From IMG/VR virus record IMGVR_UViG_3300007539_004938, positions 12,255 to 76,254 of that record: DNA of 64,000 nucleotides; one strand, 5' to 3'. A program made the translations under genes and the position numbers. Position 1 is the first letter of the stretch. Every line of letters begins with the position of its first letter. This DNA comes from a virus. Under the pieces are notes generated by a model. It did no database searches. It was given only the letters and a program-made list of their open reading frames with translations, and was not told the origin of the DNA. Positions 1 to 48,273 of this stretch are shown piece after piece.

Positions 1-119
1 ATAATAATTTCTTTTGTTTGTGGATTATCAATACATTTCATTACTTGTTCAGGTGTATTAGGTCCCCAAGCATAAAAAACATGTGTTCCATTATTTTGAT
101 GGTATTTTAACTCATACAT
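1..119 (-). CDS. Hypothetical protein, 5' part (MYELKYHQNNGTHVFYAWGPNTPEQ...), runs off the window edge
   Basis: Manually translated open frame from ATG at 119-117 to base 1; preceded by a TAAGTA late-promoter-like motif at 130-125. Confidence 0.6.
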   Translation of the reverse strand, partial: MYELKYHQNNGTHVFYAWGPNTPEQVMKCIDNPQTKEII

Positions 120-130
120 AAATATACTTA
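119..130. promoter_or_regulatory. Bidirectional T4-type late promoter pair: TAAATA (+, 119-124) and TAAGTA (-, 130-125)
   Basis: CAT-AAATATACTT-ATG; each hexamer lies 5 nt upstream of an ATG on its own strand, with no room for a Shine-Dalgarno. Confidence 0.6.
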
Positions 131-732
131 TGTTTGAAATAGTTAATGAGTTTGAAAATGCGATTGCAGACTTTTTTGGAGCGCCGTGTGCAGTAAGCAC
201 AGACTGTTGTACTCATGCTATAGAGTTATGTTTACGGTATAAAAAAATCAAAAAAACCACTGTTCCAAACCATACATACCTAAGTATTCCTTTAACTCTT
301 AAAAAACTAGATATAAGTTTTAGTTTTAACAGAGAGCAATGGACTGAGTATTATAAACTATCAAACACTAATATTATTGATGCTGCTACACTTTGGAGGC
401 AAAATAGTTATATTCCTGGCACACTTATGTGTATAAGTTTTCAATACAAAAAACATTTAAGTTTAGGTAGAGCAGGCATGATATTATGCGATAATGTAGT
501 AGATTGTGCGAACTTATTAAAAATGGGATATGACGGTAGACACAGAAATGCTCCTTGGCCTGAACAAAAAATAACTAGTATGGGATACCATTACTACTTA
601 ACTCCAGAAACTGCACAACTTGGGTTAGACAAACTGCCAGATGCTATACAACGTACTCCAAAAATTTGGTCTTGGAAAGATTATCCTGATATATCAAATA
701 ACTATATCTTCAAGGATATACCTGTTTCTTGA
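130..732 (+). CDS. DegT/DnrJ/EryC1/StrS-family PLP-dependent aminotransferase (short form)
   Basis: FE..IADFFG...AVSTDCCTHAIELCL N-terminus, IIDAA (PLP-binding Asp), SFQYKKHLSLGRAGMIL (PLP Lys region), GYHYYL. Confidence 0.85.
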   Translation: MFEIVNEFENAIADFFGAPCAVSTDCCTHAIELCLRYKKIKKTTVPNHTYLSIPLTLKKLDISFSFNREQWTEYYKLSNTNIIDAATLWRQNSYIPGTLMCISFQYKKHLSLGRAGMILCDNVVDCANLLKMGYDGRHRNAPWPEQKITSMGYHYYLTPETAQLGLDKLPDAIQRTPKIWSWKDYPDISNNYIFKDIPVS

Positions 733-1503
733 ATATTTTTTTAAATCTTTGAAGTCAGATCTCAAATACAAGTTGTTATGTATATAATTATAAACTGGGT
801 CAAGATTTGTTACTATATCATTTTCTATAACAAAATCTTCAATCATGTTTGAAAATAAAGTAAATCTGTCAAGTGTTTTTTCTCTTATTTTCCATCCCAG
901 TGACGGATAAATCCAATCTTTGACTTTTTGCATATGGCCTTTTATATCAGGATGACTATCTTGTAATTTTCCAAACGGTAAGTTAGTTTCAAACATATGC
1001 CAACTGATTTCTGGAAGTTCTTTTTCATAAAAATGCTTTAACATGTCCCATTGTTCAGAATGATCAAAAAATATAGCTGCCTCATTTGTATAAGGTGTAA
1101 AGCTGTGTCCTTGCCATATAATATTATCTTTATACAGTTTATTTACATATATAATTGACGTCATATTTTTAACTAAATCGTTTTGCATACTCCAATGATT
1201 TGTTAGCCATGTTCTATTATTGTAAGGACTACCTGTGTTAAAAACACTTCCATGAGCTTTCCACATTCCATTGTCAAATCTATCCTCACGACTAAAACTA
1301 CTCCACAATATCATTATTTTATCGTCTGGTGTAAACTTGTGTTTTATATCAGCTTCGAGTATTCTGTGTTGTATTCCTACATTACCTAAGCCTGCTAAAC
1401 CAAAATTGTAAAGTTCTAACTCTTTATCATATGCAATAATGTTTGCCCATGTTGGCCACATGTAACTTGTAAAACTACAACCAAAAGTGAATAATCTACT
1501 CAT
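694..1503 (-). CDS. SGNH/GDSL-like hydrolase or acyltransferase
   Basis: Block I LFTFGCSFT, block II NFGLAGLGN, block V DSHP. Confidence 0.65.
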   Translation of the reverse strand: MSRLFTFGCSFTSYMWPTWANIIAYDKELELYNFGLAGLGNVGIQHRILEADIKHKFTPDDKIMILWSSFSREDRFDNGMWKAHGSVFNTGSPYNNRTWLTNHWSMQNDLVKNMTSIIYVNKLYKDNIIWQGHSFTPYTNEAAIFFDHSEQWDMLKHFYEKELPEISWHMFETNLPFGKLQDSHPDIKGHMQKVKDWIYPSLGWKIREKTLDRFTLFSNMIEDFVIENDIVTNLDPVYNYIHNNLYLRSDFKDLKKYSRNRYILEDIVI

Positions 1504-1513
1504 ATAATGTCCT

Positions 1514-1536
1514 TAAATATAGTATGAATATTTATA
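1514..1536. promoter_or_regulatory. Late promoters: TAAATA (+, 1514-1519) 4 nt before ATG 1524; TATAAATA (-, 1536-1529) upstream of the SGNH gene starting at 1503
   Basis: Match to the T4 gp55-dependent late promoter consensus TATAAATA. Confidence 0.55.
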
Positions 1537-2531
1537 GCTCAAATGAATGGGATCCATTAAAGAAGGTTTTAGTTGGCGTTGCAGACTACTGCCGTATTCC
1601 TGAAATGGACAAAAGTCTACGTTGTATAAACTATGCAGATAGACAGGATGTAAGTGATGTAAAGGCTGGTCTATATCCTGATCAAGTTGTTGAAGAAAGC
1701 AACGAAGATTTAGATAAGTTTGTTGCTTTTCTCGAAGGCGAAGGCGTTGAAGTTGTTAGACCTAAACGTACACCTGATGTTGAATACTACAACTATTGTC
1801 CTCGTGATACTGTATTTGTTCATAAAAAAGGATTTCTTGCAACGCCGATGAGTTTGCGAGCAAGAAGGAGAGAGTTTCATCATATGCTACCCCACATTGG
1901 AGGCGTAGAACTAAGCCCTCAATATAATAATGACGACCTCTACGATGAAACTTGTGTTGGCGATCCTGATCGACTAGCACTTACTGAAGTAGCGCCTTGC
2001 TTTGATGCTGCTAATGCTATTCGTGCAAATGATGACATTTTGTATCTAGTAAGTAATAGCGGAAACAAAGCAGGTGCTGCCTATTTAGATCAATGGCTCA
2101 ATAAGCCTAGATATGATTTTCAAGAATGGGGTGATAAAAAAGTACATACACTTGAAAATGTTTACAGTTATATGCACATTGATAGCACTATTGCATTTTT
2201 ACGTGAAGGACTATTACTAGCTAATCCAAGTAGAATTAAAAGTAAAGATGTTTTGCCTGGTCCGTTCAAGGATTGGGATATTATTTGGGCGCCGGATCCT
2301 GTTGATGCAGGACATTATCCAGGGCTATGCAACAGTAGTATTTGGACTTGGAATGTAAACTTGTTTAGTGTTAATCCTAATCTAGTTGTATTAGAAGAAC
2401 ATCAAGATCCTACACGTAAAGCACTAGAAGCACACGGTATTGAGTGTGCTATGTTGCCATTGCGTCACGCACGTACATTAGGCGGTTGTTTCCATTGCTG
2501 CACACTAGATCTTATGCGTGAAATCGGGTAA
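1524..2531 (+). CDS. Amidinotransferase (glycine / inosamine-phosphate amidinotransferase family, StrB1-like)
   Basis: NEWDPLKKVLVG, YCPRD, FDAAN (Asp), MHIDST (His), GGCFHCCTLD (catalytic Cys). Confidence 0.9.
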   Translation: MNIYSSNEWDPLKKVLVGVADYCRIPEMDKSLRCINYADRQDVSDVKAGLYPDQVVEESNEDLDKFVAFLEGEGVEVVRPKRTPDVEYYNYCPRDTVFVHKKGFLATPMSLRARRREFHHMLPHIGGVELSPQYNNDDLYDETCVGDPDRLALTEVAPCFDAANAIRANDDILYLVSNSGNKAGAAYLDQWLNKPRYDFQEWGDKKVHTLENVYSYMHIDSTIAFLREGLLLANPSRIKSKDVLPGPFKDWDIIWAPDPVDAGHYPGLCNSSIWTWNVNLFSVNPNLVVLEEHQDPTRKALEAHGIECAMLPLRHARTLGGCFHCCTLDLMREIG

Positions 2532-3293
2532 CGAAAGCAAGCCTTTTAACTTTTCTACAGTTTCTTGATGCCATTCTTTTCCGTCATGCATCATGTCTCT
2601 TGCTTTCATAGATCCATTTTTACATCTAATAACCCATAATCTATATGGACTATTTAATATACGTTCATGATCCATTTCCCATGAAAAATTTAAAACAGGA
2701 ACATTCATGCTTTTCCACAATAAGTTAAAATGATCAAACCATAATCTATTAGCAAAATGTAGCTCACCGTAGTCCATGATATATCTTTTTCTATACCAAG
2801 TTCCGTCTATATCTCTCGATTCTGCACGATCAGTGAACCGATAATCATTGTTATTGTGATAGATAAAACTTTTGCGTGTATGTGCTGGCCATTGTACTAT
2901 AACAATTTTAGGAATAGGAAAGTTATTTTTAATCCATTGTGATGCTTGATAGCACTGAATATCACAACCGGTACCTTGATTTGCTGCATTATACACATCG
3001 GTTTCTAAATATTTTGATATTTTCCAAGACCAAGTTTGATCGTGGTGTAATCCTACACCTTCGGTATAACTACATCCAAATGTTAAAACAAAATCATGAG
3101 ACAAATCGGCAACCGATTTTGTTCTGTGTCCATATTCGTTAAATTTATATTCAATATTTACACCAGCCCATTCCCAACTAGGATTTCGTTTACATTCTCT
3201 GTAATAATCGTCTTGTTCTCGTTGAGACATAAACTTCATAGTTTTGTTTATTCTTTCTGGATTAATAAGTAAACCGTTATCGTGTAACTCCAT
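2505..3293 (-). CDS. SGNH/GDSL-like protein
   Basis: YKFNEYGHR, LTFGCSYTEGVG, NAANQGTG, ARDMMHDG. Confidence 0.65.
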   Translation of the reverse strand: MELHDNGLLINPERINKTMKFMSQREQDDYYRECKRNPSWEWAGVNIEYKFNEYGHRTKSVADLSHDFVLTFGCSYTEGVGLHHDQTWSWKISKYLETDVYNAANQGTGCDIQCYQASQWIKNNFPIPKIVIVQWPAHTRKSFIYHNNNDYRFTDRAESRDIDGTWYRKRYIMDYGELHFANRLWFDHFNLLWKSMNVPVLNFSWEMDHERILNSPYRLWVIRCKNGSMKARDMMHDGKEWHQETVEKLKGLLSLPDFTHKI

Positions 3294-3303
3294 TTGATGT
3301 TCC

Positions 3304-3324
3304 TATAAATATCTAATATATTTA
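3304..3324. promoter_or_regulatory. Face-to-face late promoters: TATAAATA (+, 3304-3311) and TAAATA (-, 3324-3319)
   Basis: Consensus matches in the 51-bp gap between divergent genes 3293(-) and 3345(+); both genes have an AGGA Shine-Dalgarno. Confidence 0.55.
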
Positions 3325-3344
3325 ATGTTAAAGGACTTTATATT

Positions 3345-4676
3345 TTGACAAACTGGTTTATGGGCATCTATTTTAGACCAAAAAATAATCTTTTACCCGA
3401 ACTTATATCAGAAACAGGCACAAGAAGACCTATGACAGATATCAGTACCATAGATCAACTTGTTGATTTAATCAGAGAATCTAATATTACTGATTCTACT
3501 CATCCTATTGCAGTGTTTAATGGCACTCATACTATAGATCATTTAGATAGTTTATTGATTTCAGAACAACACAAAAAGATTTTGCAAGAAAAAACAATCG
3601 GATTTTATTTTTATGAACCTTTGACACATTACAAATATAATCCTAATGGACATAAACAACCACACATTTTAAAAATAGATAACGCACCCGAAGAACTTAA
3701 AGACATTAGAGCATATGAACTAGATAGTCTAAACGAATGGGCAACTAAACACAATTTTAACAACGTAAATGTTTATTGTACAGATTACAAATGTTGGGAG
3801 TATTATCAACCTAAATATCCTAATATAAAACTACTATCTATGGACTTATTTGTAGAATGGTGGACATGTCATGTTAAGTTAAGAGATAGAAAAAACTTTA
3901 TACAAAATCGAGAAGAAATGCCTCCGGAGTTTTTTCCTGAAAAAATAGTAAAAAAGTTTTGGAGTGGAGCATGGAGATATGATCCAAGCAGACATTTTAT
4001 CACAGCATTTTTAGCAGGCAAAAATATGCTAGATACAAATCATGTTAGTTTTTATTATGGCATGTCAAACGAGGATATGAAAAGAAGAATGTGGTTTCCT
4101 TGGAAAGAGTTTGAGTTACGACATCCTGCACTGTCTAATATTTTACTCGAAGGTAATACAATTTTACAAGAAAAAGTTCCTTTAAGTTTTGCAGTTAACA
4201 ATCCTGCTAAAAAAGGAGCAAATGATAGTATTGAGCCTGAGGATAGTGGCTTAAACGCAAGAACTACGCACGATCCAACAGATACCTATTTTGAAAGTTT
4301 TTGTGCTATTGTTCAAGAAAGCAGAGTTACACAACCGTGGCCTAACATTAGCGAAAAAACTCTAAACGCAATAAAAAGTTATAGACCGTTTTTACTTTGT
4401 GGAGCACCTGGTGTTTTACAAATGCTAAAAGACATGGGCTTTAAAACATTTGACAAATACTGGCCAGAAGATTATGACGATATAATATCAAATAAAGATA
4501 GACTTGCACGTATTTGCGAAATAATAGAATACATTGATAGTTTTACAATAGAAGAAATGAAACTAATGTATCAAGACATGGAAGAGATCCTTATACACAA
4601 TCATAACAACATAAAGTCAATACCAAACTTTTATGTTAAAATAAATGAACAACTAGGTGAAATAATCATTGAATAG
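3345..4676 (+). CDS. Glycosyltransferase, GT10 / alpha-1,3-fucosyltransferase-like C-terminal domain
   Basis: YFESFCAIVQES...ISEKTLNAIKSYRPFLLCG...LKDMGFKTF resembles the GT10 nucleotide-sugar binding motif (F..EN...TEK...A....P...G); TTG start. Confidence 0.6.
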   Translation: MTNWFMGIYFRPKNNLLPELISETGTRRPMTDISTIDQLVDLIRESNITDSTHPIAVFNGTHTIDHLDSLLISEQHKKILQEKTIGFYFYEPLTHYKYNPNGHKQPHILKIDNAPEELKDIRAYELDSLNEWATKHNFNNVNVYCTDYKCWEYYQPKYPNIKLLSMDLFVEWWTCHVKLRDRKNFIQNREEMPPEFFPEKIVKKFWSGAWRYDPSRHFITAFLAGKNMLDTNHVSFYYGMSNEDMKRRMWFPWKEFELRHPALSNILLEGNTILQEKVPLSFAVNNPAKKGANDSIEPEDSGLNARTTHDPTDTYFESFCAIVQESRVTQPWPNISEKTLNAIKSYRPFLLCGAPGVLQMLKDMGFKTFDKYWPEDYDDIISNKDRLARICEIIEYIDSFTIEEMKLMYQDMEEILIHNHNNIKSIPNFYVKINEQLGEIIIE

Positions 4677-5411
4677 TTTATCTGCCCAATATTCGTGTGC
4701 ATCTTCTTTATGATGCCAAAATTTTTGTCCAGATATATCAAAGCCTTTATCTTTACAATGTTCCCAAAAACTTTCTTCTGGGTTATCAAAGTTTTTAAAC
4801 CTATTTCTATCTATTTTATTTCTGTAAAACTGATATCTACCTCCGTTTTTACATGCTTGAAATGCATTTGCAAAAATAAAGGGCGCTTCTATATTTTTGA
4901 TAATAGTTTGTGTTTGTATAATATTTAAATATCTTTTTACATACCAATGAGTACTACTGTAAAATAAATGTTTCCTTAATACCTTTTGATTATTATCAAA
5001 CTTTTTTGGAAACAGTTTACTAGAATGATCATGATGTACATGTCCAGCCTGTTTATCTGGAACATAATCTACAAAATCGTATACATCATTTAAACTATCA
5101 TCAGGTGTATCATAAAACATTTCTGTTCTATGTTCACCTGTCCAATGTATTAAAAACAAGGTATTTTTTGCACGTCGAGGATTATCTAGTATATAAAATA
5201 AAGTTGTTCTAGCTATGTAATCATTACTAGCACCAGGTACACTTAAATCTGTTTTATCTACACCTAATCTATTTGCTAGTTTAGCACCAAAAGATCGTTT
5301 TCTGTTTTCAGGATGGTCTCCTAATCCACTTCTAAAAATTTCACTTCCGGCTGCATGACTACAACCATTGATTAATATGTTTGTAAATTTGTAGTCAGAC
5401 AAACTGGCCAT
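4653..5411 (-). CDS. SGNH/GDSL-like protein
   Basis: ILINGCSHAAG, DLSVPGASNDYI, C-terminal WHHKEDAHEYWA. Confidence 0.65.
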   Translation of the reverse strand: MASLSDYKFTNILINGCSHAAGSEIFRSGLGDHPENRKRSFGAKLANRLGVDKTDLSVPGASNDYIARTTLFYILDNPRRAKNTLFLIHWTGEHRTEMFYDTPDDSLNDVYDFVDYVPDKQAGHVHHDHSSKLFPKKFDNNQKVLRKHLFYSSTHWYVKRYLNIIQTQTIIKNIEAPFIFANAFQACKNGGRYQFYRNKIDRNRFKNFDNPEESFWEHCKDKGFDISGQKFWHHKEDAHEYWADKLFNDYFT

Positions 5412-6022
5412 TCTCCTCTATTATTTTTAATAACTTCAATATACATATCTTTGAGATTTACTAATCCGTCAGTTGTATGTCTTTCATAATAAAACTTGTT
5501 GATATTACCTAAAATAACTTCAATTTTATCCATGTGGATATAAGGAGAGTTTAAACTAGCACATGCATAAAAATCATGTATGCGTACATTATCATTATCA
5601 TCTAAATATGCATTATGAGGATAAAAGTTCATTTTAATCATATTATGTTTTTCTAATGCATCGAGAACATCATTTACTTTATTTGTGTAATCATTCTTCC
5701 ATTTGGCTTTTTCTATTAAATGATTTAAACTTGTATCATACCATTTGAAAAATATCAGTTGTTTCTTTTTATCGATATCAATAATCTCTGGAGCAAACTT
5801 TTCTTTTTGAACATGCTCTAGCCATTTGCATTCATTTTCAAAAAAGAAATCGATATGTGCTTGGGTATATCCTGCTCTATCAAAAAAGTATCTGCGATCA
5901 TATTGATATTGCATACAAAATATGCTTTTATTTGGACTAATGCGAGGAACATAAACAATGTTAGGACGTACCATTCCTCTGTTTTGATACTTATAAAATA
6001 TTTGCCATTCTTCTATATTCAT
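5372..6022 (-). CDS. Protein kinase-like / phosphotransferase-fold protein (atypical catalytic loop)
   Basis: FENECKWL (alpha-C Glu), APEIIDID, KMNFYPHN (catalytic loop), IHDFY (DFG equivalent). Confidence 0.55.
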   Translation of the reverse strand: MNIEEWQIFYKYQNRGMVRPNIVYVPRISPNKSIFCMQYQYDRRYFFDRAGYTQAHIDFFFENECKWLEHVQKEKFAPEIIDIDKKKQLIFFKWYDTSLNHLIEKAKWKNDYTNKVNDVLDALEKHNMIKMNFYPHNAYLDDNDNVRIHDFYACASLNSPYIHMDKIEVILGNINKFYYERHTTDGLVNLKDMYIEVIKNNRGEWPVCLTTNLQTY

Positions 6023-6981
6023 AATCGTTCTTTTGGTATAATAATATCAGTTCCGCAATGACAATGCTCTTTACTACATATAACAGGTCTTGTAGTAAAT
6101 TGCAAGTCTTTATCTAAAATATTTCCATGATTTCTTCCAACACCGCAACTTGCACTTGATATTTCTCCTCTTGGATTAATAAAAAGAGCATCATCTACAA
6201 AACATTTCCAGCCTTTAAAAAAGTTTTGTCGGGCAGCAATAATCTTGTTACTGTTAATAGGTTCAATAGTATCAGTATAATGTGCCATGCTTACAGCTTT
6301 GTTTGGATTGTAAGGCTTGGGAAGTTTTTCAACAGTTTCAAACTGTGCTTCTTCTAAAAACTTTACTTTTTCAGGATCACTGTACTCCCAAGGTCCTGCA
6401 TTCACACTCATTTCATCAAACAGAGGTGTCCATTCTAAGTTATAGTTTGGTACTTCTTCTCTTACCCGATTTCCAAACTCAACAATCTCCCAAAAGCGTT
6501 CTTCGTGCATCAGCATTTTTGTACACAAATAGTTTACTTTGTCGCACAAAAACTTTGCGTTTTCAATATACCTTTCTTTCTTACTAAACTCTACATGAAA
6601 ACTTGCAACAATGTCATTAAACAAATGATAATGTTGCTCCCAATATTTTTTTGGTCTACTAAGATTTGTGTTTACACTAACTGTTAAACTATCACCTAAC
6701 CAATCTTTTAGGTATTCTGTAAGAGGAATAAAGTTTTCCCAATGTGTTGGTTCTCCTCCGCTGTAGAATATTTTAAAATATTTGTATCCTTTGTCTTGGT
6801 AAGTTTTAAAAATCTTTGTTACATTTTCAATATATTGATCTAGGTTACCATTATTTCTAACATCTCCTGCCCAGTTACCTGGATTGCAATAAGTACACTG
6901 AAAGTTACAAAAGTTGTTTACTTGCCAAGTAATACAAGCATACGGTTCTGCCATAGGTGTAATTTTTAGTAACTTAGACAT
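6019..6981 (-). CDS. Radical SAM protein with C-terminal twitch/SPASM-like Cys cluster
   Basis: CNFQCTYC, SGGEPT, NTNLS; C-terminal C..INPRG.ISSASC...CSKEHCHC. Confidence 0.9.
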   Translation of the reverse strand: MSKLLKITPMAEPYACITWQVNNFCNFQCTYCNPGNWAGDVRNNGNLDQYIENVTKIFKTYQDKGYKYFKIFYSGGEPTHWENFIPLTEYLKDWLGDSLTVSVNTNLSRPKKYWEQHYHLFNDIVASFHVEFSKKERYIENAKFLCDKVNYLCTKMLMHEERFWEIVEFGNRVREEVPNYNLEWTPLFDEMSVNAGPWEYSDPEKVKFLEEAQFETVEKLPKPYNPNKAVSMAHYTDTIEPINSNKIIAARQNFFKGWKCFVDDALFINPRGEISSASCGVGRNHGNILDKDLQFTTRPVICSKEHCHCGTDIIIPKERL

Positions 6982-8257
6982 AGTTTCTTAACCATTCCAT
7001 TTCAGGAAATGTGCTCCAAAAATCTTCTCCACGATATTGATCTAATCTATGATTATTGTCAAAAAACTGCTTTAGTTTTGATTCATTTAAAGTTCCAGCG
7101 TTGAAGAACTGAATAACACTATCAATCTTTCCAATAACATCTTTGATTATCTCAGGCTTAGCCATTGCTCGATCTTTAATTTTATCAAATGCCCATGCCT
7201 TGTAATCAATATATTTACTTCTTAGTTCTTGTTTATAATGCTCAGGTATATAATCAACTCGCATAAAATCTGGACCAGTTAACATGTTAAGTCTGCAATT
7301 TTCAATATCAACTAAACCACGCTCAACCCAGTCCATGTGAAAGTCTGGCCAGTTCCAAACATTGTACAAACTTATAGTTGGTGTTAATTCGAAATGCACA
7401 TGTGGTACTTCTTCAATCATCTGTAAACGATTACGTTCAATCTGACCCCAATCTGTTCCATGACGACTATATTCTGCTCGTGCGCCGTTGCAATCTAAAC
7501 TTGCACTAACATGTATATCGTTAAACTGCTTCCAATATTCAAGAATACTTTTACGTTTGTACTTAAAATTACTGAAGTTTGTAGTGTAACGTAATGCTAC
7601 ATCAGTTTTATTAGTTTCTAACCATTTATCTAATATCTTATAATGTTCTTCGGTAATAAGTGCTTCGCCGCCTGCAAAATAAACTTCTTCGCAATCCGGC
7701 AAGTATTTTTGTAAATCTTCCCAAAAGTTATTCTTTTTTGCAATATTAATAATAATCTCGCCATCATTATTAAGTATATTTGCAACTTCATGTTTACCAT
7801 ATAGTTCACCGTGTTCTTTAGCATGTAGACTGCTAAGTTCAGGACCACAACTACGACACTTCATGTTACAAATATTACTAAATCTTACATCTAAATATAC
7901 CATACGCATTTCGTCGATACTACCATCGTTGTTAGTTTGCCGCACTAAATCAAAATGTTTATCTCCATACCAATGATTGTGATTTTTACGAAGAGTCCAC
8001 ACATAGGTCCTATCTTCTAACTCGTAACAACGTCTACAACAATCAAGTCTTTCTCCATTTAGCATAGCAAGACGCAGTTCTTTATATCTATCACTGTTCC
8101 ACGCTTCTTCGATACTACTTTGTTTTAAGTTAGCAAAAGGCTGATCGCTGTCTGCAATACAACAAGGCATAACTCTGCCATCAGGCCAGGCATGCATATG
8201 AATCCATGGTAAAATGCAAAATGCTTTGTTTTCTTTTAATAAATGTTCTTTATCCAT
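6974..8257 (-). CDS. Radical SAM protein with N-terminal twitch/SPASM domain
   Basis: CILPW...GRVMPCC...CCRRC, then CNMKCRSC, FAGGE, YTTN, SLD. Confidence 0.9.
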   Translation of the reverse strand: MDKEHLLKENKAFCILPWIHMHAWPDGRVMPCCIADSDQPFANLKQSSIEEAWNSDRYKELRLAMLNGERLDCCRRCYELEDRTYVWTLRKNHNHWYGDKHFDLVRQTNNDGSIDEMRMVYLDVRFSNICNMKCRSCGPELSSLHAKEHGELYGKHEVANILNNDGEIIINIAKKNNFWEDLQKYLPDCEEVYFAGGEALITEEHYKILDKWLETNKTDVALRYTTNFSNFKYKRKSILEYWKQFNDIHVSASLDCNGARAEYSRHGTDWGQIERNRLQMIEEVPHVHFELTPTISLYNVWNWPDFHMDWVERGLVDIENCRLNMLTGPDFMRVDYIPEHYKQELRSKYIDYKAWAFDKIKDRAMAKPEIIKDVIGKIDSVIQFFNAGTLNESKLKQFFDNNHRLDQYRGEDFWSTFPEMEWLRNYV

Positions 8258-9479
8258 CCATCATCTCCGCAAGTTCTGGAAAAGTTTGACAAAAGTCTTC
8301 ATTTCTTATCTCGTCACGTCTTTGTATATGATGTTGAAACTGTTGTTTTTCATTGTCCCAAGTGTCTTGTTCATTTGCAAAATTCATTGCATCCTTAACG
8401 TGTAGAGATGGCCACCATCCATCTTTACTCATAAAGTCGTAAAGTTTTTGATTGTTACTATTACCAATTTCTTTTAGACTTACTGGCAATGCATGAGCAC
8501 AAAAATAAGAAGGTGTTATTGCTCTATATATACTAATACTATCTTTATGTCTAAATAAATCTTTGTTCATTAAGTATGTAAAAAAATCAGCCAAAGTTCT
8601 ATAATTAAATACACTTAGTACTGTGTTAAACTGGTAATCAATGTAATCTAAATTCCTAATACTTTTTAAGTTTTCTTCAACAACAGCCCAATCTGTTCCA
8701 TGCCTCAAATATTCAGCACGTTTTCCATAGTGATCTAAACTAGCACTTATTTCTACTTTTTTAAATCTACTCCATAAATCTAATATATCATATTTTTTAT
8801 ATTTGAAGTTGCTCATGTTAGTATTATATCGCAAAGTGATTTGTTTATTATATCCACCTTGTATCATTTCTTCAAGTATTTGATAATGTTCGTCTGTAAT
8901 CAACGGTTCGCCACCGGCAAAATATGCCATGTCCATATGACATACTTGAGATTTTATTTCTTCTAAAAGTTTACCAGATGAATCGGCGTGATTGATTATT
9001 CTATAGTTAGGCGGAACATGATCATGCTGTTTCATTTCTTGCGCCCATTGACTACTAAACTCTGCACCGCAGGTCCTACATTTAAAGTTGCAAATATTAC
9101 TAAATCTAACATCAAAGTAACGCATTTTGAAATCTGCAACAGTTCCATCGTCTTCAGTAGTTGGAACTACTTCGTCAAAATATTTACTAAAGTTTTCTAA
9201 ACTATATGTTCTAAAACTAAAAGGACTGCTTTTTTCATGTTTGTAACAATATTCACAAATACTGCTTTTTTCATCATTAAGCATTCTCAAGCGTAGTTCA
9301 CGCATAAGTTTATCATTAAATATTTCAGACAAAGGTTTGTTTTTTACATTATCAAAAGGATCAGTATAATCACTGCTACAACAGGGATAAACATCACCCT
9401 TTGGGGTAACGTTTAAATGTATCCACGGAAACATGCAAAATGTTTTACTATTTAATAACTTTTCTTTGTCAAAATCCAT
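8250..9479 (-). CDS. Radical SAM protein with N-terminal twitch/SPASM domain (paralog of 6974-8257)
   Basis: CMFPW...GDVYPCC...CEYC, CNFKCRTC, FAGGEP; start moved to ATG 9479 (MDFDKEK), which follows a TAAGGA Shine-Dalgarno. Confidence 0.9.
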   Translation of the reverse strand: MDFDKEKLLNSKTFCMFPWIHLNVTPKGDVYPCCSSDYTDPFDNVKNKPLSEIFNDKLMRELRLRMLNDEKSSICEYCYKHEKSSPFSFRTYSLENFSKYFDEVVPTTEDDGTVADFKMRYFDVRFSNICNFKCRTCGAEFSSQWAQEMKQHDHVPPNYRIINHADSSGKLLEEIKSQVCHMDMAYFAGGEPLITDEHYQILEEMIQGGYNKQITLRYNTNMSNFKYKKYDILDLWSRFKKVEISASLDHYGKRAEYLRHGTDWAVVEENLKSIRNLDYIDYQFNTVLSVFNYRTLADFFTYLMNKDLFRHKDSISIYRAITPSYFCAHALPVSLKEIGNSNNQKLYDFMSKDGWWPSLHVKDAMNFANEQDTWDNEKQQFQHHIQRRDEIRNEDFCQTFPELAEMMDG

Positions 9480-10851
9480 TTGCTTCCTTACATAGGTCAA
9501 AGAAATCATTCATTTCAGGAAAGGTAGATTCAAAATCTACGTTACGTCTACGATCTTGTTCTTTAAAAAAGTTCCAAAAATCTCGACGACCTTCTCTAAC
9601 TCTATCAGGAGTATATTCTGTAGACCTCATGTAATCAACTACACGACGAAACTTTTCGTACTCTAATTCACTAAAATGATTTTTACTACCTTCTTGTACA
9701 TTTTCTCTAATAAACTGTAAATGTTTTTCCATATAGGGCAGGTACTGCTCTTTAGGCAAAATATTTATATCATATTGCAACGGCTCTTTTAGATATGGTG
9801 TATCAAAATGAATACGTTGCCATCTGCCACTGTTTACATCATTATACTTACGGCGCCATTCTAGCATTTTTTCTAGTAAAGTTTCAAACGTAGTTACACT
9901 AAACAAACTAAACGTAATCATAAATGTTACAGGCGCAGTGGTATTACGCATAAAGTAATCTAAGTTACGTTCAAACACTTCTAAGTCTAAACCGTCTCTA
10001 ATATATTCTGCACGAGGCCCCCAAGTATCAATGCTGCTGAATAACTTAAACTGTTTAATTTTATTTTGACTTAACAAACTGTTTACACTATCAGTAAACT
10101 TTTCTAGTTGTTTTTCTTTGCCGCCAAGATTACTGTTCACATTTAGTTCAAGATGTGGCTTTGGATCTTTTTCAAGTTCTTCAAACAGTCTATATGTGCT
10201 TTTTTGTATTGTAGGCTCTCCGCCAGTAACACGTAAAATGTTTAGTGTCTTGCTAACTTCAGGCCACCATTTCCACCAAGCACGTAAGTAAGGATTTTTA
10301 TCTTCTTCGTATATACGAAACCAATCGATATCGTTTCTATGATTTTTAACCATGTTATATGGACCGTGTTGACGGATTTCATTGTAATATCTACTACTTG
10401 CTTTTGGATGACAATATCCGCAACGGAAGTTGCATTCATTACCAAATGAAATTTCAATATACTCAGGGTTAACATTAAAATCCCAAGGATTGAACTTTAC
10501 TTCTTGCAATCTTTCTTCACTGTAAATACTACCACTACGAATATGACGGTCACTAATATAATCGTCTCCCATGTTTTCAATATTCCAGCAATAGTTACAT
10601 CCGACACATTGTTTGCCTTCTAACATCTCTCTGCGTTCTTGTTTCTTTTGTTTTGTATTATGCAACGCACTAGGATTGGTTAGGAGCTCGTCAACATCAA
10701 TTTGATGAGGAGCAGGGTGATAACAACTGTGTGTTTCACCTGTTTGCAAGTAGATAGTTGTATGGTACCATTTTGCAAAACAAAATGTAGGAGAAAAATG
10801 CCTTGTTGTAATAGCATTAATACTTTTAAGTTTATCTGTATTTTCTGACAT
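9469..10851 (-). CDS. Radical SAM protein with N-terminal Cys/His domain
   Basis: CFAKW...HSCYH...CVGCNYC, CNFRCGYC, TGGEP; start moved to ATG 10851 (MSENTDK), next to the upstream stop. Confidence 0.88.
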   Translation of the reverse strand: MSENTDKLKSINAITTRHFSPTFCFAKWYHTTIYLQTGETHSCYHPAPHQIDVDELLTNPSALHNTKQKKQERREMLEGKQCVGCNYCWNIENMGDDYISDRHIRSGSIYSEERLQEVKFNPWDFNVNPEYIEISFGNECNFRCGYCHPKASSRYYNEIRQHGPYNMVKNHRNDIDWFRIYEEDKNPYLRAWWKWWPEVSKTLNILRVTGGEPTIQKSTYRLFEELEKDPKPHLELNVNSNLGGKEKQLEKFTDSVNSLLSQNKIKQFKLFSSIDTWGPRAEYIRDGLDLEVFERNLDYFMRNTTAPVTFMITFSLFSVTTFETLLEKMLEWRRKYNDVNSGRWQRIHFDTPYLKEPLQYDINILPKEQYLPYMEKHLQFIRENVQEGSKNHFSELEYEKFRRVVDYMRSTEYTPDRVREGRRDFWNFFKEQDRRRNVDFESTFPEMNDFFDLCKEANGF

Positions 10852-10852
10852 A

Positions 10853-11776
10853 TTATCTCTTTGCAGTTCTTGGTGGATTTGTGTACACTGTTTTGAAGAA
10901 CTGACTTTGATTTCCATTAAACGGCTGAGCTGCAATAGGCAAGTCAAGTTCTTCAATCAAACTATAACCAAGCGATAATGTATTATCTTCCATTTCGTCA
11001 TCATTCATTTGTTTGCTATTCCAATATTCATTAAGCCATTTAAAATCACGAACATTAACAAAATCCCAGTCTGTACACATTGTTTTGTACAAGCCTTCTC
11101 TAGCACCATAAATAGCCCATTCACCGTTTTCAACATCGGCGCCTACCATTAACCAAACATACAATCTATGTAGATTTTTCCAATGATTTTTATGAAAATC
11201 ATCTAAACTTGGTTTCATTCCTCTGTCAAGTGCCATCTTTACACCCTCACGGAATCCAGCACGCCATGCTTGCTGTGGAGTAGCGTTATTCATTATTTCT
11301 GAATAACAACCGTTCATTTGTATATATTCAATATCCCAACAAAAATCTACTTGTGCATGTGGATTATTAGGATCTGCATTTTCATGGGTGCGCATTTCTA
11401 AGACTTTTTTCTTTGGCCAGCATTTGATTCCACCGTTACCATATTCAAGACCGTTGATTGTATTTTTGGCACTCCAACTAATCACACACTCCTCTAAACT
11501 TACATTTCTATTCCAGTGTCCATCTTCATGGTCATCTAAGTTAAAACTTTTTGTAAGAAAAGAAGGATTAATAATGTTATCACCATCTACTGTAATAAAC
11601 CTATCAGTTTCGCTTAATTCTGCACAGGCTTTATGCGCAGCATCACTACCTTCTACACCGTGTACACGTTTTGCCCACGGAATTTTTTTGCACAAATCTG
11701 CATAGTTTTTTTCTGCGTTTGGTTCATCATAGCTAAGATAAATGATATCGTAGTCTAAAACCCTAAACTCTGTCAT
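10853..11776 (-). CDS. Glycosyltransferase-like protein (GT-A fold)
   Basis: DIIYLSYDEP N-terminal strand, AAHKACAE, FITVDGDN (DxD), YGNGG. Confidence 0.6.
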   Translation of the reverse strand: MTEFRVLDYDIIYLSYDEPNAEKNYADLCKKIPWAKRVHGVEGSDAAHKACAELSETDRFITVDGDNIINPSFLTKSFNLDDHEDGHWNRNVSLEECVISWSAKNTINGLEYGNGGIKCWPKKKVLEMRTHENADPNNPHAQVDFCWDIEYIQMNGCYSEIMNNATPQQAWRAGFREGVKMALDRGMKPSLDDFHKNHWKNLHRLYVWLMVGADVENGEWAIYGAREGLYKTMCTDWDFVNVRDFKWLNEYWNSKQMNDDEMEDNTLSLGYSLIEELDLPIAAQPFNGNQSQFFKTVYTNPPRTAKR

Positions 11777-12345
11777 ACTAGTACCTCATGATAATAACTT
11801 TCAAGTCTCTTTGAAGTATACACGCTAAATGCGTCTGGGTCAAGTTCTAAATCACTGTTAAAATCAATTGTGTGTGCATCATTTATAACTGTAGAAATAT
11901 CAACTACAAAAAATCTATGTAAATGATTTGGATTATTTTTTTTAGTTACACTAAATCCCATAACTTGATTAAAGTTTAGTTTATTTTGTTTAAAATTTTG
12001 TTGTATTTTTTTATCAACTGTAAAAATCCATTTTTTATTTTTTGTATCTTGTGTTACTGTTAAATCTGGATTATCTGAGATTGTAGGTAACTTGTATATT
12101 TGATCGTTTATATTTTGCATATAAGTATCTTCATTGTATATATGTTTTAACACATGCATTTTTACTTTGCTATCAAATACCACAAGATAGTTTTTAAACT
12201 GTTCTTTACCAGTTATCAAATTTTCTACATCACTTGGATCAACTTTAATAAAGTTAGCATCATCAGGAACTCTATTATAAACTCCTAAAAGATTACCATG
12301 TTCGTCAAAAGTTACATATTTGTCTACATTCACAAATACACTCAT
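11773..12345 (-). CDS. Hypothetical protein within the glycosyltransferase operon
   Basis: 190-aa ORF with 4-bp overlaps to both neighbours. Confidence 0.75.
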   Translation of the reverse strand: MSVFVNVDKYVTFDEHGNLLGVYNRVPDDANFIKVDPSDVENLITGKEQFKNYLVVFDSKVKMHVLKHIYNEDTYMQNINDQIYKLPTISDNPDLTVTQDTKNKKWIFTVDKKIQQNFKQNKLNFNQVMGFSVTKKNNPNHLHRFFVVDISTVINDAHTIDFNSDLELDPDAFSVYTSKRLESYYHEVLV

Positions 12346-13172
12346 AATATTCCTTTTTCAAATGTTTCAATCATTTCTTGTGTTACAAAGTTTTTTTCAG
12401 TATAATGAAAAACTCCAGATTGCTTATAGTTGCCTATAAACAAATCACAATCGGCATCTAAATATACACCAACCTTATCTTGCCACGACTCTGTTTTAAT
12501 ATCCCACCAATCTTGCCCATGTAACTTCATGTGTGTCAAATGAGGAAAACTTGTGTTGCTAGTAACTTGTTTTTCAATATTTAAAAGTTTTACTGCGATA
12601 GCACAACTTACATCCATACTTGGAAACTTCTGAAAGTATTTACCACCAGCAAACTGACCATAAAATAATTCCCAGTTATTCATTACAAGTTCTAGCAACT
12701 TGAAAAAGGTGTGTGTATCATCACATTTTTTAAAATAATACAATGCACAATATATATTTGGTAACTGATGTGTTTTAAATGAATGTCTATAGTAATCTGT
12801 ATTGTATGTTGTACCTCTATATGTTTTAATATTAGAAGTAAAAAACAGATCTTTTTTATCTAAAAACTTCCACCAATGTTCAATATTTTCTAATACTAAT
12901 ACATCTGTATCTAATACAAATGTTTTATCAAAAGGTGTTGCATGATAAACTTTCCATCTATGTTCTGCAGAGAATCTAGATTCTTTTTGTTCATACCATG
13001 GTATTTCTACAATATCATCAAATACACTTTTTTGTTTAGGTGTTATCTCGTCGTTAGTAATTAAACATACATTTGCATTTTTGTTATATTTTTTAATACT
13101 GCAAGCAGCTAAGTATGCTTGCTGTATATAATCGTGATTTTTATTTTCTGCTAATAATGTAAAATTAGCCAT
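12342..13172 (-). CDS. Glycosyltransferase, GT8-like
   Basis: YIQQAYLAACSIK, VCLIT, TPFDKTFVLDTDV (DxD), THMK; start at ATG 13172. Confidence 0.7.
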   Translation of the reverse strand: MANFTLLAENKNHDYIQQAYLAACSIKKYNKNANVCLITNDEITPKQKSVFDDIVEIPWYEQKESRFSAEHRWKVYHATPFDKTFVLDTDVLVLENIEHWWKFLDKKDLFFTSNIKTYRGTTYNTDYYRHSFKTHQLPNIYCALYYFKKCDDTHTFFKLLELVMNNWELFYGQFAGGKYFQKFPSMDVSCAIAVKLLNIEKQVTSNTSFPHLTHMKLHGQDWWDIKTESWQDKVGVYLDADCDLFIGNYKQSGVFHYTEKNFVTQEMIETFEKGIL

Positions 13173-14010
13173 TATCAATAATCCTATTCAAACTGTATTT
13201 GTTAATCACATGTACGTTGCTTCCTTTTATTCTTAAAGGTGTATACTCATTACTTTCATTTCTTTTTTGTATTAAAAATAAAAAGTTATCATCTTTTAAA
13301 TCTATTAAAACATCTTTGTCTGTACAATAATACATTGTACCTGGCATTGTTCCTGCAAAGTTATTGTTTGTGTATCCATTCATAATATGTATAGCAATAC
13401 TAAATGCATGATCATTTCTAAATACATTTGTGTTTAGTTTATAAAGGTTACGGTAATGTGGATAATATTCTTGTATATGCGATACTAGATCAAAAAAAGT
13501 TTTGTTAAGTTCTGTTTTTCTAAAAAATATACAAGTTGCCCAGTAAAATGTAGGCCCAATTTCACTTATAAATGTAAACTCATTTTTATCTCTCCATCCT
13601 GATAAATCAAATGCATCTTTGTATAGCAAAAGATCTTTTTGCTGTACAAAACACTCATTTAAAATGTCATTACTAACAACAAAATCTGTATCTAGTAACA
13701 AGGTTTCGTCGTAAGGAGACAAATCATAAACACTACTTCGATTACTGTTTTTAAACTCTAGTTGTTTTTTTGCAAATATACCATCATAATATTTTTTATA
13801 GCTATATTTTTTGTCATTATCAACTTGTATTATTTTATCAAAGACATCTACACTATTTTTGTATGTGTTATACAAGTAATCAACATTATCAGTAACTAAA
13901 GAAGTGGGCAAGTCTAAATACTTGCGCACACGTTTTGCAAGAAAAATTGCTTGCTTTATATAATCTATTTCAGTATTATTTCGAGCTATTAAAACAACAC
14001 CTTGATTCAT
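13165..14010 (-). CDS. Glycosyltransferase, GT8-like (paralog of 12342-13172)
   Basis: SPYDETLLLDTDF (DxD), FRNDHAFSIA, HVINK. Confidence 0.7.
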   Translation of the reverse strand: MNQGVVLIARNNTEIDYIKQAIFLAKRVRKYLDLPTSLVTDNVDYLYNTYKNSVDVFDKIIQVDNDKKYSYKKYYDGIFAKKQLEFKNSNRSSVYDLSPYDETLLLDTDFVVSNDILNECFVQQKDLLLYKDAFDLSGWRDKNEFTFISEIGPTFYWATCIFFRKTELNKTFFDLVSHIQEYYPHYRNLYKLNTNVFRNDHAFSIAIHIMNGYTNNNFAGTMPGTMYYCTDKDVLIDLKDDNFLFLIQKRNESNEYTPLRIKGSNVHVINKYSLNRIIDNG

Positions 14011-14354
14011 ACTTCAATGATGCCCTTAACAGTTCTATTTGTTTTTAGTTTATTATATTCAGTGATATATTTATTTGCTGCTTTTGAGTACACGTTAACC
14101 ATTTCACTTGCAAAAACTTTTAAATCTTCAACCTGTATTGGAATATCGTTATCATCAATAAGTACAGTTTCCTCTTGTCCTAATGCTAACAAACTTTGAC
14201 AAAAACTAACAAGTCCTGGATTAACTGTAAACTGTCCTCCATTGCAAAAATATAATAAATCATCTTGGTATTGTTCTTTCAAAACTCTTTTTGTATTATC
14301 TAAAGTAATCATATAGTTACTAAAGTCAAGAGCTTTTTCTAGTCTTTCATCCAT
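14007..14354 (-). CDS. Hypothetical protein, weakly DUF4376 / tail-fibre-assembly-like; first gene of the GT-radical SAM operon
   Basis: 115 aa with AGGAG Shine-Dalgarno; GGQF...LIDDNDIPIQVEDL pattern. Confidence 0.6.
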   Translation of the reverse strand: MDERLEKALDFSNYMITLDNTKRVLKEQYQDDLLYFCNGGQFTVNPGLVSFCQSLLALGQEETVLIDDNDIPIQVEDLKVFASEMVNVYSKAANKYITEYNKLKTNRTVKGIIEV

Positions 14355-14374: not shown

Positions 14375-14403
14375 ATTATATATTGTGTTATGCAAAAAGT
14401 CAA
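14375..14403 (-). promoter_or_regulatory. sigma70-type promoter TTGACT-N17-TATAAT driving the operon from 14354 to 4653
   Basis: -35 at 14403-14398, -10 at 14380-14375, exact 17-nt spacer. Confidence 0.75.
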
Positions 14404-14406
14404 GTA

Positions 14407-15423
14407 TTAAGTGGGAGGAGTACTTAAATCTTGTGAAACATTTGTTGTAGTAGCAATAGTTGGTGCTGTTAAACTACAAGCTGTATAAGACACAGAGTTT
14501 ACTGTAAAACTACTATTAGCTGTACTCGATCTAACATTACTAGTAAGTGTGCCGGTAACTGTTTCGTCAATAGGATCAAGTACACCGCCGATACCTTGAC
14601 CGCCTTCGCCAACATCACCGTCGTTGAACTCTATCCTAAATCTAACAGCATTACCATCTAATCTTGCTGAAATACTGTAATCATTATCTGCGTAAACACC
14701 GCTACCTATCTTTGTAAAAATAACTTGATAACTTGCTGTAAGATCTACATATCCGCTATTCAAAGCAGGAGTTCCGCTAGATGCTGTTGTTTCGTATTTG
14801 TTAAATGTAATAGTAGACATAGCAGATAGCATAGCTGCCCAATCTGTGCCTTTTGCACCAGAAGATCCTGTTAAACTAGCATCAAATCTAACAGATCCTC
14901 CACTATTAAAAAAATAGTTACGTTGAGTCGTGCTTGCAAAAGTAACTGTAACAACATGATAAACGCTTTGCACTTCTGATGCGCCGCCCCATTGTGTAGT
15001 ACGTGAGCTGGTTTCTGCTGGGCTTAAATCAAAGTTACTTGGAGGATATCCAGTTGTTTCGTCATCAAAGTTTTGTATAGTTGTTATAGCACTAGTATAG
15101 TCATTGAACCCCATAAGTGTTCCATCTGTAACTGCTGTTTTGGTTCCAGTTGCTTGATTATAACCAAAACTGGTATCTGCACCTATTGTATTTCCTGCTG
15201 TTACTGTTGCTAAACTAGTGTTTAGTGCTCCTGTTTGATGTACAGATGCTTTTTGTATATCAATGTATAAATCGAATAGTTGATCTTCAGTGACTGAATC
15301 AACCTGCTGGGTAACTGCACTACTATTCAATGTCTGGCCCCAATAAGAAACAACAATAGAACTTACATTGGTACGCATACCATTGTAATCAGTATCTTGA
15401 ATCTTATCTCCTGTAGCTACCAA
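14407..15423 (-). CDS. Virion structural protein (tail/baseplate-associated), paralog of 15468-16355
   Basis: Thr/Ser/Gly-rich; shares HQTG, WGG.SEVQSV, FFNSGG, GSGVY.DNDY and PIDE.VTGTLTS with its neighbour; TTG start after AAGGAG. Confidence 0.7.
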   Translation of the reverse strand: MVATGDKIQDTDYNGMRTNVSSIVVSYWGQTLNSSAVTQQVDSVTEDQLFDLYIDIQKASVHQTGALNTSLATVTAGNTIGADTSFGYNQATGTKTAVTDGTLMGFNDYTSAITTIQNFDDETTGYPPSNFDLSPAETSSRTTQWGGASEVQSVYHVVTVTFASTTQRNYFFNSGGSVRFDASLTGSSGAKGTDWAAMLSAMSTITFNKYETTASSGTPALNSGYVDLTASYQVIFTKIGSGVYADNDYSISARLDGNAVRFRIEFNDGDVGEGGQGIGGVLDPIDETVTGTLTSNVRSSTANSSFTVNSVSYTACSLTAPTIATTTNVSQDLSTPPT

Positions 15424-15467: not shown

Positions 15468-16355
15468 TCAAGCTAAAGTTGTTGTTGTAACATAAATTGG
15501 TGTTGCCACCTCTACATACGAACCTGTTGCTCTAAGTTGGGATACAGAACTTGTAAGTGTACCTGTTACAGATTCATCTATTGGACCGTGTCCGCCTGCT
15601 CCGCTACCTGCTGCATCATCGTTAAACTCTGCTTTAATAGTAATAACGCTTCCATTGGCTTTTGCTTTTAATGTATAATCATTGTCTACATAAACGCCGC
15701 TGCCTGTTTTTATTAATAATGTTTGATATGATGTTGTTAAATCGAAGTTACCTAATCCAGAACTTGTTCCGCTATCTGCTGTAGTATTATTAGACGTAAT
15801 CTTAATAGTGCCTAATGCAGATAACATACCATTCCATTCTGTATATTTGGATCCGGTACCGCCTGTTAGACTTGCTGCTAACCTTATTTCGCCGCCGCTG
15901 TTAAAAAAATGTCTTCTATGATCTTCAGAGTTAAATGTAACTGTAAAATGATGTTCTACACTTTGTACTTCTGAAGTACCACCCCATGACGTTGATCTAT
16001 CACTTGTTAACTTAGGTTCCGTTGATGCTTGTGTAGTTGCAAATATTACAGCAGCATCATTCAGTATACTTGTTGATGCAGATTCGTATTGAACATAAAC
16101 TGCATCAGTAATATCTTCTTGAGAAATAACATTTGATAGTGTAGGAGATGCACCCGTTTGGTGTACCCTTGCATTTATCATGTCTGTTTTTAAATTTGTC
16201 ATGTGAAATGCATTTACAGTATCACTGGTAGATACTGCTGAACTATTTAATGTTTGACCATATCCATAAGTACCTGACCCATTTCCATAAACTAGAGCAA
16301 CCTTTGCTTGCATTTGGTTGTATCTAGTTACTGTGATTATTTCTCCAACTGCCAT
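15468..16355 (-). CDS. Virion structural protein (tail/baseplate-associated)
   Basis: As above; late promoter immediately upstream. Confidence 0.7.
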   Translation of the reverse strand: MAVGEIITVTRYNQMQAKVALVYGNGSGTYGYGQTLNSSAVSTSDTVNAFHMTNLKTDMINARVHQTGASPTLSNVISQEDITDAVYVQYESASTSILNDAAVIFATTQASTEPKLTSDRSTSWGGTSEVQSVEHHFTVTFNSEDHRRHFFNSGGEIRLAASLTGGTGSKYTEWNGMLSALGTIKITSNNTTADSGTSSGLGNFDLTTSYQTLLIKTGSGVYVDNDYTLKAKANGSVITIKAEFNDDAAGSGAGGHGPIDESVTGTLTSSVSQLRATGSYVEVATPIYVTTTTLA

Positions 16356-16373: not shown

Positions 16374-16381
16374 TATTTATA
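16374..16381 (-). promoter_or_regulatory. T4-type late promoter TATAAATA, overlapping the stop codon of the upstream fibre gene
   Basis: Perfect consensus 18 nt upstream of ATG 16355. Confidence 0.7.
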
Positions 16382-48239: not shown

Positions 48240-48273
48240 TTGACTTTTTTAAGTACGTAGTTTATAATAAATA
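48240..48273 (+). promoter_or_regulatory. sigma70-type promoter TTGACT-N17-TATAAT (48240-48268) with an overlapping TAAATA late element (48268-48273), upstream of gp55
   Basis: Exact 17-nt spacer; AGGAG Shine-Dalgarno downstream; a divergent TAAATA on the minus strand at 48238-48233 serves the tail operon. Confidence 0.75.

Follow-up and report, generated by a model that had tools for sequence, protein, structure and literature searches.

A radical SAM-rich gene island beside the tail-fibre genes of a virus contig probably encodes a glycan-type pathway

What does a virus make with a set of sugar-type enzymes, an amidinotransferase and an array of radical S-adenosylmethionine (radical SAM) enzymes kept directly beside its tail-fibre genes? 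The question is raised by a stretch of 64,000 nucleotides (the window), bases 12255-76254 of the 76,254-bp virus contig IMGVR_UViG_3300007539_004938, with a guanine-plus-cytosine content of about 33% in the window and a CheckV completeness of about 21% for the contig. The gene island at its left end is most probably a cytoplasmic pathway for a glycan or nucleotide sugar. The fuller proposal, in which this pathway makes and heavily tailors a nucleotide-sugar-derived oligosaccharide that is placed on virion proteins, is advanced tentatively, as a little short of an even call. Glycan-type chemistry had been proposed earlier by a model that saw the letters of the window (hereafter the sequence-only reading), and it is supported here by a short-chain dehydrogenase/reductase (SDR) of the nucleoside-diphosphate (NDP) sugar type, an amino-sugar module and four glycosyltransferase (GT)-like genes.

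Window base 1 cuts through the island, which continues leftwards for another 12.25 kb up to the contig end. The 14-kb cassette described by the sequence-only reading was thus too small: with its right border at 14354 (window coordinates, unless contig positions are named), the island spans at least 26.6 kb and holds 29 open reading frames (ORFs), among them 11 radical SAM genes. Seven of the latter lie in the left 12.25 kb, including two of the N-twitch type (see below), one of which is cut by the contig end; the same segment carries a 2-oxoglutarate (2OG) oxygenase, the extended-SDR NDP-sugar epimerase/dehydratase and four unassigned ORFs. The main operon runs on the minus strand from 14354 to 4653, about 10 kb of overlapping or abutting genes for a 115-aa protein, two GT8-like proteins, a 190-aa protein, a GT-A-like protein, four radical SAM enzymes, a kinase-like protein and a DUF6071 protein. 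All gene classes named by the earlier reading were recovered where it had placed them, although its GT-A-like and three SGNH assignments correspond to weak fold or motif matches.

The amino-sugar module consists of two genes. The first (130-732, +) encodes a 200-aa pyridoxal phosphate (PLP) aminotransferase-like protein, here called mini-DegT, that matches Pfam PF01041 at E 8.7e-11 (42.1 bits, cut-off 19.8); its pyridoxal Asp D84 and the PLP lysine of SFQxxK108 are invariant in 10 orthologues. The protein does not reach the full two-domain length of about 360 aa, and a phmmer search against the PDB gave no match. Still, because the length is kept in nine orthologues and in the cyanophage S-SCSM2R (195 aa), mini-DegT is regarded as a conserved short form and not as a fragment or pseudogene. 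The second gene (1524-2531, +) encodes a StrB1-like L-arginine-dependent amidinotransferase, which aligns over its full length to StrB1 (1BWD, residues 6-332; E 2.3e-55) with the H.DST and FHC.TLD motifs, the latter holding the catalytic Cys, in register. It is closer to StrB1 than to HsvA (4e-35) or to the glycine amidinotransferases and SxtG (about 1e-25). Among the 29 island ORFs no Pfam match at E <= 0.01 suggests a cyclitol-forming enzyme, such families not having been searched by name. The extended SDR to the left of the window scores 132.9 bits against Pfam Epimerase, above the cut-off, and finds among solved enzymes GalE (E 2.7e-28) and GDP-6-deoxy-mannose reductase (E 5.5e-25). The 2OG oxygenase, also in the left part, belongs to the Asp/Asn-beta-hydroxylase family. 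In one bacterial locus (L083, 12540-14966, -) a 2OG oxygenase is fused to a homologue of the unassigned ORF that neighbours the oxygenase gene in the island (contig 3268-4359) in a single 808-aa protein, which suggests that the two island products work together.

Among the four GT-like genes, that at 3345-4676 (+) encodes a GT-B fold, GT10-like protein with an ..ES..ISEKT.. motif. Its AlphaFold2 model (pLDDT 92.8, pTM 0.91) retrieves GT-B enzymes in Foldseek at E 1e-4, and the best VIA match is an alpha1,3-fucosyltransferase (GT10; 5zoi) at Z 10.9, with FUT11 at 9.4 and FUT9 at 8.9. Statistically, the fucosyltransferase score cannot be told from those of EXT1 (Z 10.8) and T4 beta-glucosyltransferase (Z 10.5). 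The Atlas gives a GT10 lead of 0.79, and no PF00852 (GT10) match appears even at E <= 10. The two GT8-like proteins are paralogues (hhalign 98.6%): the one at 12342-13178 (-) matches glycogenin at E 4e-4 over about 95 residues, the other at 13165-14010 (-) by itself only at E 0.16, and neither has a Pfam match. The fourth protein (10853-11776, -), of GT-A or nucleotide-diphospho-sugar-transferase type with an invariant VDGDN motif, is assigned from weak fold matches. Its model is poor (pLDDT 63), Foldseek reaches TarP/TarS at E 7e-3, and VIA yields Z of only 5-6.4 to GT-A transferases, with cytidylyltransferases scoring alike. The family has no Pfam model and comprises more than 8000 clusters at 90% identity in public metagenomes, on contigs of up to 346 kb. 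Longer forms of about 535 aa, found in P0044 and about ten other metagenome matches, are tandem duplications of the domain with a DGD motif in each copy.

Five of the 11 radical SAM genes are of the type defined by NCBIfam NF033640 ("twitch domain-containing radical SAM protein", N_Twi_rSAM), for which the curated cut-off is 170 bits. Four complete island proteins exceed it as whole proteins: 6974-8257 (-; 379.5 bits, SPASM match at residues 14-78), 8250-9509 (-; 363.5 bits), 9469-10956 (-; 305.7 bits) and contig 7315-8697 (397.6 bits). The N-twitch ORF cut by the contig end scores 164.4 bits. For 9469-10956 the true start probably lies downstream of the listed TTG, since the family match begins at residue 55. 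In the N-twitch proteins the Pfam SPASM match (residues 14-89) precedes Radical_SAM, i.e. the Cys-rich domain stands before, not after, CxxxCxxC, and their alignment reveals invariant C25, C43, C85 and C88, then C140/C144/C147. The CxxxCxxC motif is present in all ten complete radical SAM proteins of the island; in the enzyme at 6019-6981 (-), recognised by Pfam and PHROG and devoid of an N-terminal twitch domain, it stands at residue 25. Literature searches on the N-terminal twitch family, on PA5oct with radical SAM, and on jumbo phages with radical SAM and glycosyltransferases returned nothing, and neither radical SAM genes nor PA5oct are mentioned in the "moraphage" paper (PMC12619734).

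Three further proteins are SGNH-like, two of them at motif level only (694-1503, -, FGCSFT ... DxHPD; 2505-3293, -, FGCSYTEG ... RDxxHDG). The third (4653-5411, -) is the DUF6071 protein (Pfam PF19547, E 3.7e-12), possibly SGNH-related, with an NGCSHTAGSE block and an hhalign match of 73% to the 2505 family. A GCS block I and D.H/H motifs towards the C-terminus are common to all three; their mutual hhalign matches are weak, and none matches a Pfam SGNH family or a PDB structure. The gene at 5372-6022 (-) is predicted to encode a protein-kinase-like fold, as its Atlas match is to RIO1/APH/Kdo kinase clusters (0.97; 175-185 shared features). In no island protein was a membrane segment detected, the maximum over a 19-residue hydropathy window being 1.52, below the usual membrane-helix level, and no flippase, polymerase, ligase or phosphoglycosyl-transferase family occurs among the Pfam matches. 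With proteins predicted to be soluble and none of these families, the chemistry would be cytoplasmic and would not by itself reach the envelope.

Next, the timing of the island was considered, for which the sequence-only reading had argued that expression is late. For the left-hand genes this holds. TAAATA lies upstream of 16 of 57 genes, with about 2.4 expected, and these comprise structural genes as well as all five left-hand island genes, on which the earlier reading had placed late promoters. Only 5 sites in the window match the full T4 late-promoter octamer TATAAATA, fewer than the 11.5 expected, and three of them fall 26-41 nt upstream of gene starts, those of 694-1503, 3345-4676 and 15468-16355. 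The first (1529-1536, -) is located 33 nt upstream of 694-1503 and kept in 7 of 11 loci; the second (3304-3311, +) precedes the GT-B gene, with (T)ATAAATA in 10 of the 11 upstream stretches shown; the third (16374-16381), before a fibre paralogue, is kept in 11 of 11 loci. Conversely, the main operon is headed by a sigma-70-type promoter, TTGACT-17-TATAAT (14375-14403, -), which lies in a 52-nt gap, is the best site of its type in 17 kb and is followed by AAGGAG and ATG. The element TTGAC[AT]-N16-18-TAnnnT recurs 46-55 nt before the operon start codon in 11 of 12 distinct relatives despite divergence of the sequence around it; the background rate is 0.7% per 90-nt window. It should be noted that the total of sigma-70-like sites is no higher than in shuffles (87 vs 86), and use as evidence is limited to the conserved site 14403-14375. 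Host-sigma-70 promoters mark early genes in T4-type phages. Under this early-type promoter stand the kinase-like and DUF6071 genes, every radical SAM gene of the window (four) and all but one of the four GT-like genes; judged from promoter sequence, the bulk of the island is probably expressed before the late genes. Read-through from upstream late transcripts is also possible, as no terminator is predicted there. The gp55-like late-sigma gene, too, has a site of this type (TTGACT-17-TATAAT; 48240-48268, +) about 50 nt upstream.

Metatranscriptome contigs cover parts of the island in three libraries, which speaks for presence only. Across 1335-2063, over the amidinotransferase gene, word depths are 25-78 in three metatranscriptomes and 0-13 elsewhere; in a DNA run the depth stays at about 6 throughout. 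High expression could account for this, or else strain pooling over a conserved gene. No conclusion on expression level or timing is drawn from these contigs, because contig depth cannot rank genes and conserved segments pool strains.

The island is a stable unit among relatives. IMG/VR loci retrieved through the N-twitch enzymes (28 with one, 41 with another) display the same genes in the same order beside fibre genes, at amino-acid identities of 30-99%, and at least 20 IMG/VR contigs carry the whole island in that order, always adjoining fibre genes. The sequence-only reading had made its case depend on the genes travelling together in relatives; they do, always next to the fibre genes, and on this count it stands. 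Best kept are the amidinotransferase (72-90%), the SDR (80-97%), the GT-A-like protein (67-87%) and the four radical SAM genes of the window. The kinase-like gene is found in some relatives only and is missing from most. Genes inserted in relatives are again radical SAM genes, namely a B12-binding class B type (about 705 aa) and further N-twitch copies, so that the tailoring capacity varies around a fixed core.

Counterparts are also found outside this group. The unrelated T4-like cyanophage S-SCSM2R carries mini-DegT (52%; ORF305, 195 aa) and the amidinotransferase (65%; ORF309) together, in a cluster that also has GTs, 2OG oxygenases and a single radical SAM gene; the authors of that genome refer to these homologues as "antibiotic synthesis genes" of unclear purpose (PMC12801897). 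N-twitch radical SAM clusters occur in Vibrio phages K566/K567 and Ralstonia phage RsoM2USA as well. Moreover, radical SAM genes of the same types stand in arrays of up to about ten in cellular genomes, among them Bdellovibrio sp. HCB2-146, a complete Bacteriovoracaceae chromosome, other Bdellovibrionota and a gammaproteobacterial metagenome-assembled genome (MAG). Homologues of three further island products, the GT-A-like protein, contig ORF 8694-9299 and the 2OG oxygenase, are encoded in these arrays as well, with an amidinotransferase in one locus and Pfam GT2 genes a few genes away in two. Because cellular arrays show the same pairing, the association of radical SAM arrays with glycosyltransferases is not phage-specific. 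Runs of 8-11 consecutive radical SAM genes were observed at three bacterial loci, L102 (7146-20340, the Bacteriovoracaceae chromosome), L099 (5066-18958, the gammaproteobacterial MAG) and L105 (2832-12267), with GT2 and GT-A-like homologues near them. Island and tail-fibre homologues of up to 58% identity were further seen on MAG contigs labelled "Verrucomicrobia bacterium TMED56" (NHDJ01000025.1) and "Flavobacteriaceae" (1.7 kb), which are probably phage contigs binned into bacterial MAGs.

From these components a pathway can be proposed. The SDR would oxidise or dehydrate an NDP-sugar to a keto-sugar, which mini-DegT would aminate; the StrB1-like enzyme would then move an amidino group from arginine onto the amine, giving a guanidino sugar. 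GT8-like, GT-A-like and GT-B enzymes could build a short chain from it. Its C-H positions could be modified by oxidation, epimerisation, deoxygenation or methylation, a task for the radical SAM array and the 2OG oxygenase, joined in some relatives by B12-type methylases. The SGNH-like proteins would finally add or trim acyl groups. In terms of timing, a biosynthetic operon transcribed early from a host-type promoter would have the donor pool ready in advance, and the late-promoter GT-B and SGNH genes would act last, once virion proteins appear.

The most likely acceptors would be phage structural proteins, for instance the two Ser/Thr-rich fibre-like paralogues that lie between the island and the tail fibres (14407-15423 and 15468-16355, both -). 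They are part of the fibre module, are 41% identical to each other and contain 26-28% Ser plus Thr, compared to about 10% in the island enzymes. Both have a conserved N-terminus (MAVGEII..RYN.MQ in one). A late promoter precedes one of them, and upstream of the other several relatives show a TTGACA-type hexamer.

Several observations weigh against a virion-directed glycan pathway. The GT-A-like and SGNH-like assignments are weak, and the early-type promoter of the main operon also fits DNA modification or host manipulation. The GT-B model is nearly as close to the T4 DNA beta- and alpha-glucosyltransferases (Z 10.5 and 8.3) as to the fucosyltransferases (10.9). Peptide maturation is the best-known role of SPASM/twitch radical SAM enzymes, and no sugar-activating nucleotidyltransferase was identified, the sole trace being CTP_transf_3 at E 0.086.

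Some of these points lead directly to the alternative that the product is a hypermodification of DNA, a glycan or an amino/guanidino adduct on hydroxymethylated or activated phage bases that would block host restriction and CRISPR. The likeness of the GT-B model to the T4 glucosyltransferases counts in its favour, as does the conserved early-class promoter with its equivalent before the gp55-like gene. The sequence-only reading had argued against DNA modification from late expression, an argument that is weakened by the early-type promoter of the main operon. Thymidine-hypermodification pathways, too, include kinase, PLP and radical SAM enzymes. Multi-GT glycan hypermodification of DNA is cited in PMC12619734 (its ref. 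46). On the other side, and in line with the earlier statement that no hallmark gene of DNA modification is visible, neither a thymidylate-synthase-like (PF00303) nor a TGT/DpdA (PF01702) gene was matched in the contig and four related records of 113-170 kb, the five records being 21-48% complete. In addition, the GT-B and SGNH genes have late promoters, the island sits inside the structural module, and homologous radical SAM arrays with GT-A-like homologues (and GT2 genes near two of them) exist in cellular genomes. Taken together, DNA hypermodification is considered unlikely.

An alternative judged a shade less likely is that of a soluble or host-directed product, such as an aminoglycoside-like guanidino sugar or cyclitol, or a glycan passed to host machinery, which would alter the infected-cell surface (e.g. 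for superinfection exclusion) or inhibit competitors. The amidinotransferase is nearest to StrB1 among solved amidinotransferases, and the combination of a DegT-type protein, an APH/Kdo-type kinase fold, twitch radical SAM enzymes and GTs resembles the logic of aminocyclitol pathways. The early-type operon promoter and the "antibiotic synthesis genes" label given in S-SCSM2R (PMC12801897) point the same way. However, no Pfam match among the island ORFs suggests an inositol or 2-deoxy-scyllo-inosose synthase, an exporter or a resistance gene (synthase families were not searched by name), no island protein has a membrane segment that could reach the envelope, and most relatives lack the kinase-like gene. 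Nor would such a product explain why the island is so strictly linked to fibre genes. A bolder version can be formulated in which an abundant aquatic jumbo-phage clade makes a guanidino-bearing, radical-SAM-rearranged, aminoglycoside-like sugar early in infection, as a free or transferable effector. This sugar would be aimed at competing phages or host functions instead of serving as a passive coat, and the N-twitch family would be a new class of carbohydrate C-H tailoring enzymes shared with predatory Bdellovibrionota. This version as a whole is improbable.

Equally doubtful is a direct modification of virion proteins by the radical SAM enzymes (cross-links, epimerisation, methylation) in the manner of RiPPs (peptides made on the ribosome and altered after translation), with the GTs as minor decoration: SPASM/twitch enzymes are typical peptide maturases and the secondary NCBIfam matches are to such maturases, an Asp/Asn-beta-hydroxylase-family 2OG oxygenase is at hand in the left part of the island and fibre genes are adjacent, but no RiPP recognition element, protease or transporter family is found among the matches, a precursor-peptide gene would not fit between the abutting or overlapping island genes, radical SAM genes and sugar enzymes co-vary in both phages and bacteria, and NF033640 has no assigned peptide partner.

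The window part of the island also includes three genes of unassigned function. A 380-aa ORF (1-200, -; contig 11312-12454) has its N-terminal 66 codons in the window and orthologues of 28-73% identity in relatives; a conserved 190-aa protein is encoded at 11773-12345 (-), and the 115-aa protein at 14007-14354 (-) is the first gene of the operon. PDB profile searches with the GT-A-like, GT-B, SGNH-like (694), 190-aa (11773) and contig 8694 families returned nothing usable. For contig 8694-9299 a methyltransferase had been considered because of a G-rich motif; this was backed by no search and was dropped. In a relative of 97% identity, an ORF of 277 aa just outside the island on the left (L111, 19239-20072, -) gives a sub-threshold QueC/PP-loop match at E 2.4e-4; it may encode an enzyme of the sugar amidotransferase type or belong to a deazaguanine pathway.

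By its conserved genes, the contig is closest to Pseudomonas phage PA5oct and Agrobacterium phage Atu_ph07, both distant T4-like jumbo myoviruses. An SbcC/gp46-like protein is 50% identical to that of PA5oct, and the contig also encodes SbcD, a portal protein and a late sigma factor of the gp55-like type, as well as a gp25-like baseplate protein, a tail lysozyme and Collar-domain fibre proteins. A megablast search of the island against GenBank phages gave no match, and metagenomes of many studies, aquatic, freshwater, estuarine and seawater, contain near-identical DNA. Within the baseplate/fibre module, 22542-36323 (-) is occupied by one ORF of 4593 aa, unusually large for a phage structural gene, and is followed by one of 1135 aa.

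With 26 kb and 11 radical SAM genes, the island would rank among the most complex biosynthetic pathways carried by phages, and it belongs to a very abundant clade, the clusters counted above for a single island protein being from aquatic metagenomes. The sugar context offers a concrete substrate class for NF033640, a family without a known reaction, and the order of the pathway can be predicted from the separation of an early operon and late-promoter transferases. A product placed on fibres would matter for how hosts are recognised and defences evaded in the ocean, and one that modifies DNA or acts as a free metabolite would amount to a new chemistry of anti-defence or warfare.

How does this compare to known systems? 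Large T4-like cyanophages have glycan or "LPS" (lipopolysaccharide) clusters (S-SCSM2R ORF301-310; P-SSM2, S-SCSM1; PMC12801897) that likewise combine GTs, NDP-sugar epimerases and 2OG oxygenases. That of S-SCSM2R differs in having one radical SAM gene and no N-twitch array, and in its location away from fibre genes. Virion glycosylation in mycobacteriophages is the subject of Freeman et al. 2023, cited in PMC12619734. In mycobacteriophages and chlorovirus PBCV-1, soluble virus-encoded GTs decorate structural proteins in the cytoplasm; those systems employ a few GTs and lack radical SAM, amidinotransferase and acyl-tailoring genes. PBCV-1 A64R is among the weak fold matches of the GT-A-like protein. 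A similar number of radical SAM genes, 12, is reported for the marine T4-like genome TARA_ERS488813_N000010, in a passing mention as a demand for iron-sulfur clusters (Nishimura et al. 2017, PMC5332604); that account does not include island anatomy, a link to sugars or promoter analysis. StrB1, the L-arginine:inosamine-phosphate amidinotransferase (PDB 1BWD), has full-length homology and the active-site Cys/His motifs in common with the phage enzyme, but its setting is the streptomycin cluster and that of the phage enzyme a glycan-type island. In none of these closest known systems do acyl tailoring and an amidino-sugar module stand together with a radical SAM array beside fibre genes. Phage glycan clusters as such are known; to our knowledge, none has been shown to bring together a radical SAM array, an amidinotransferase and acyl-tailoring enzymes. 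Finally, the island proteins share with NF033640 the N-terminal Cys-rich domain followed by CxxxCxxC. NF033640 itself is a named family without known substrate or reaction, whereas here its members form a five-member array that stands, with six other radical SAM genes, inside an island of sugar enzymes.

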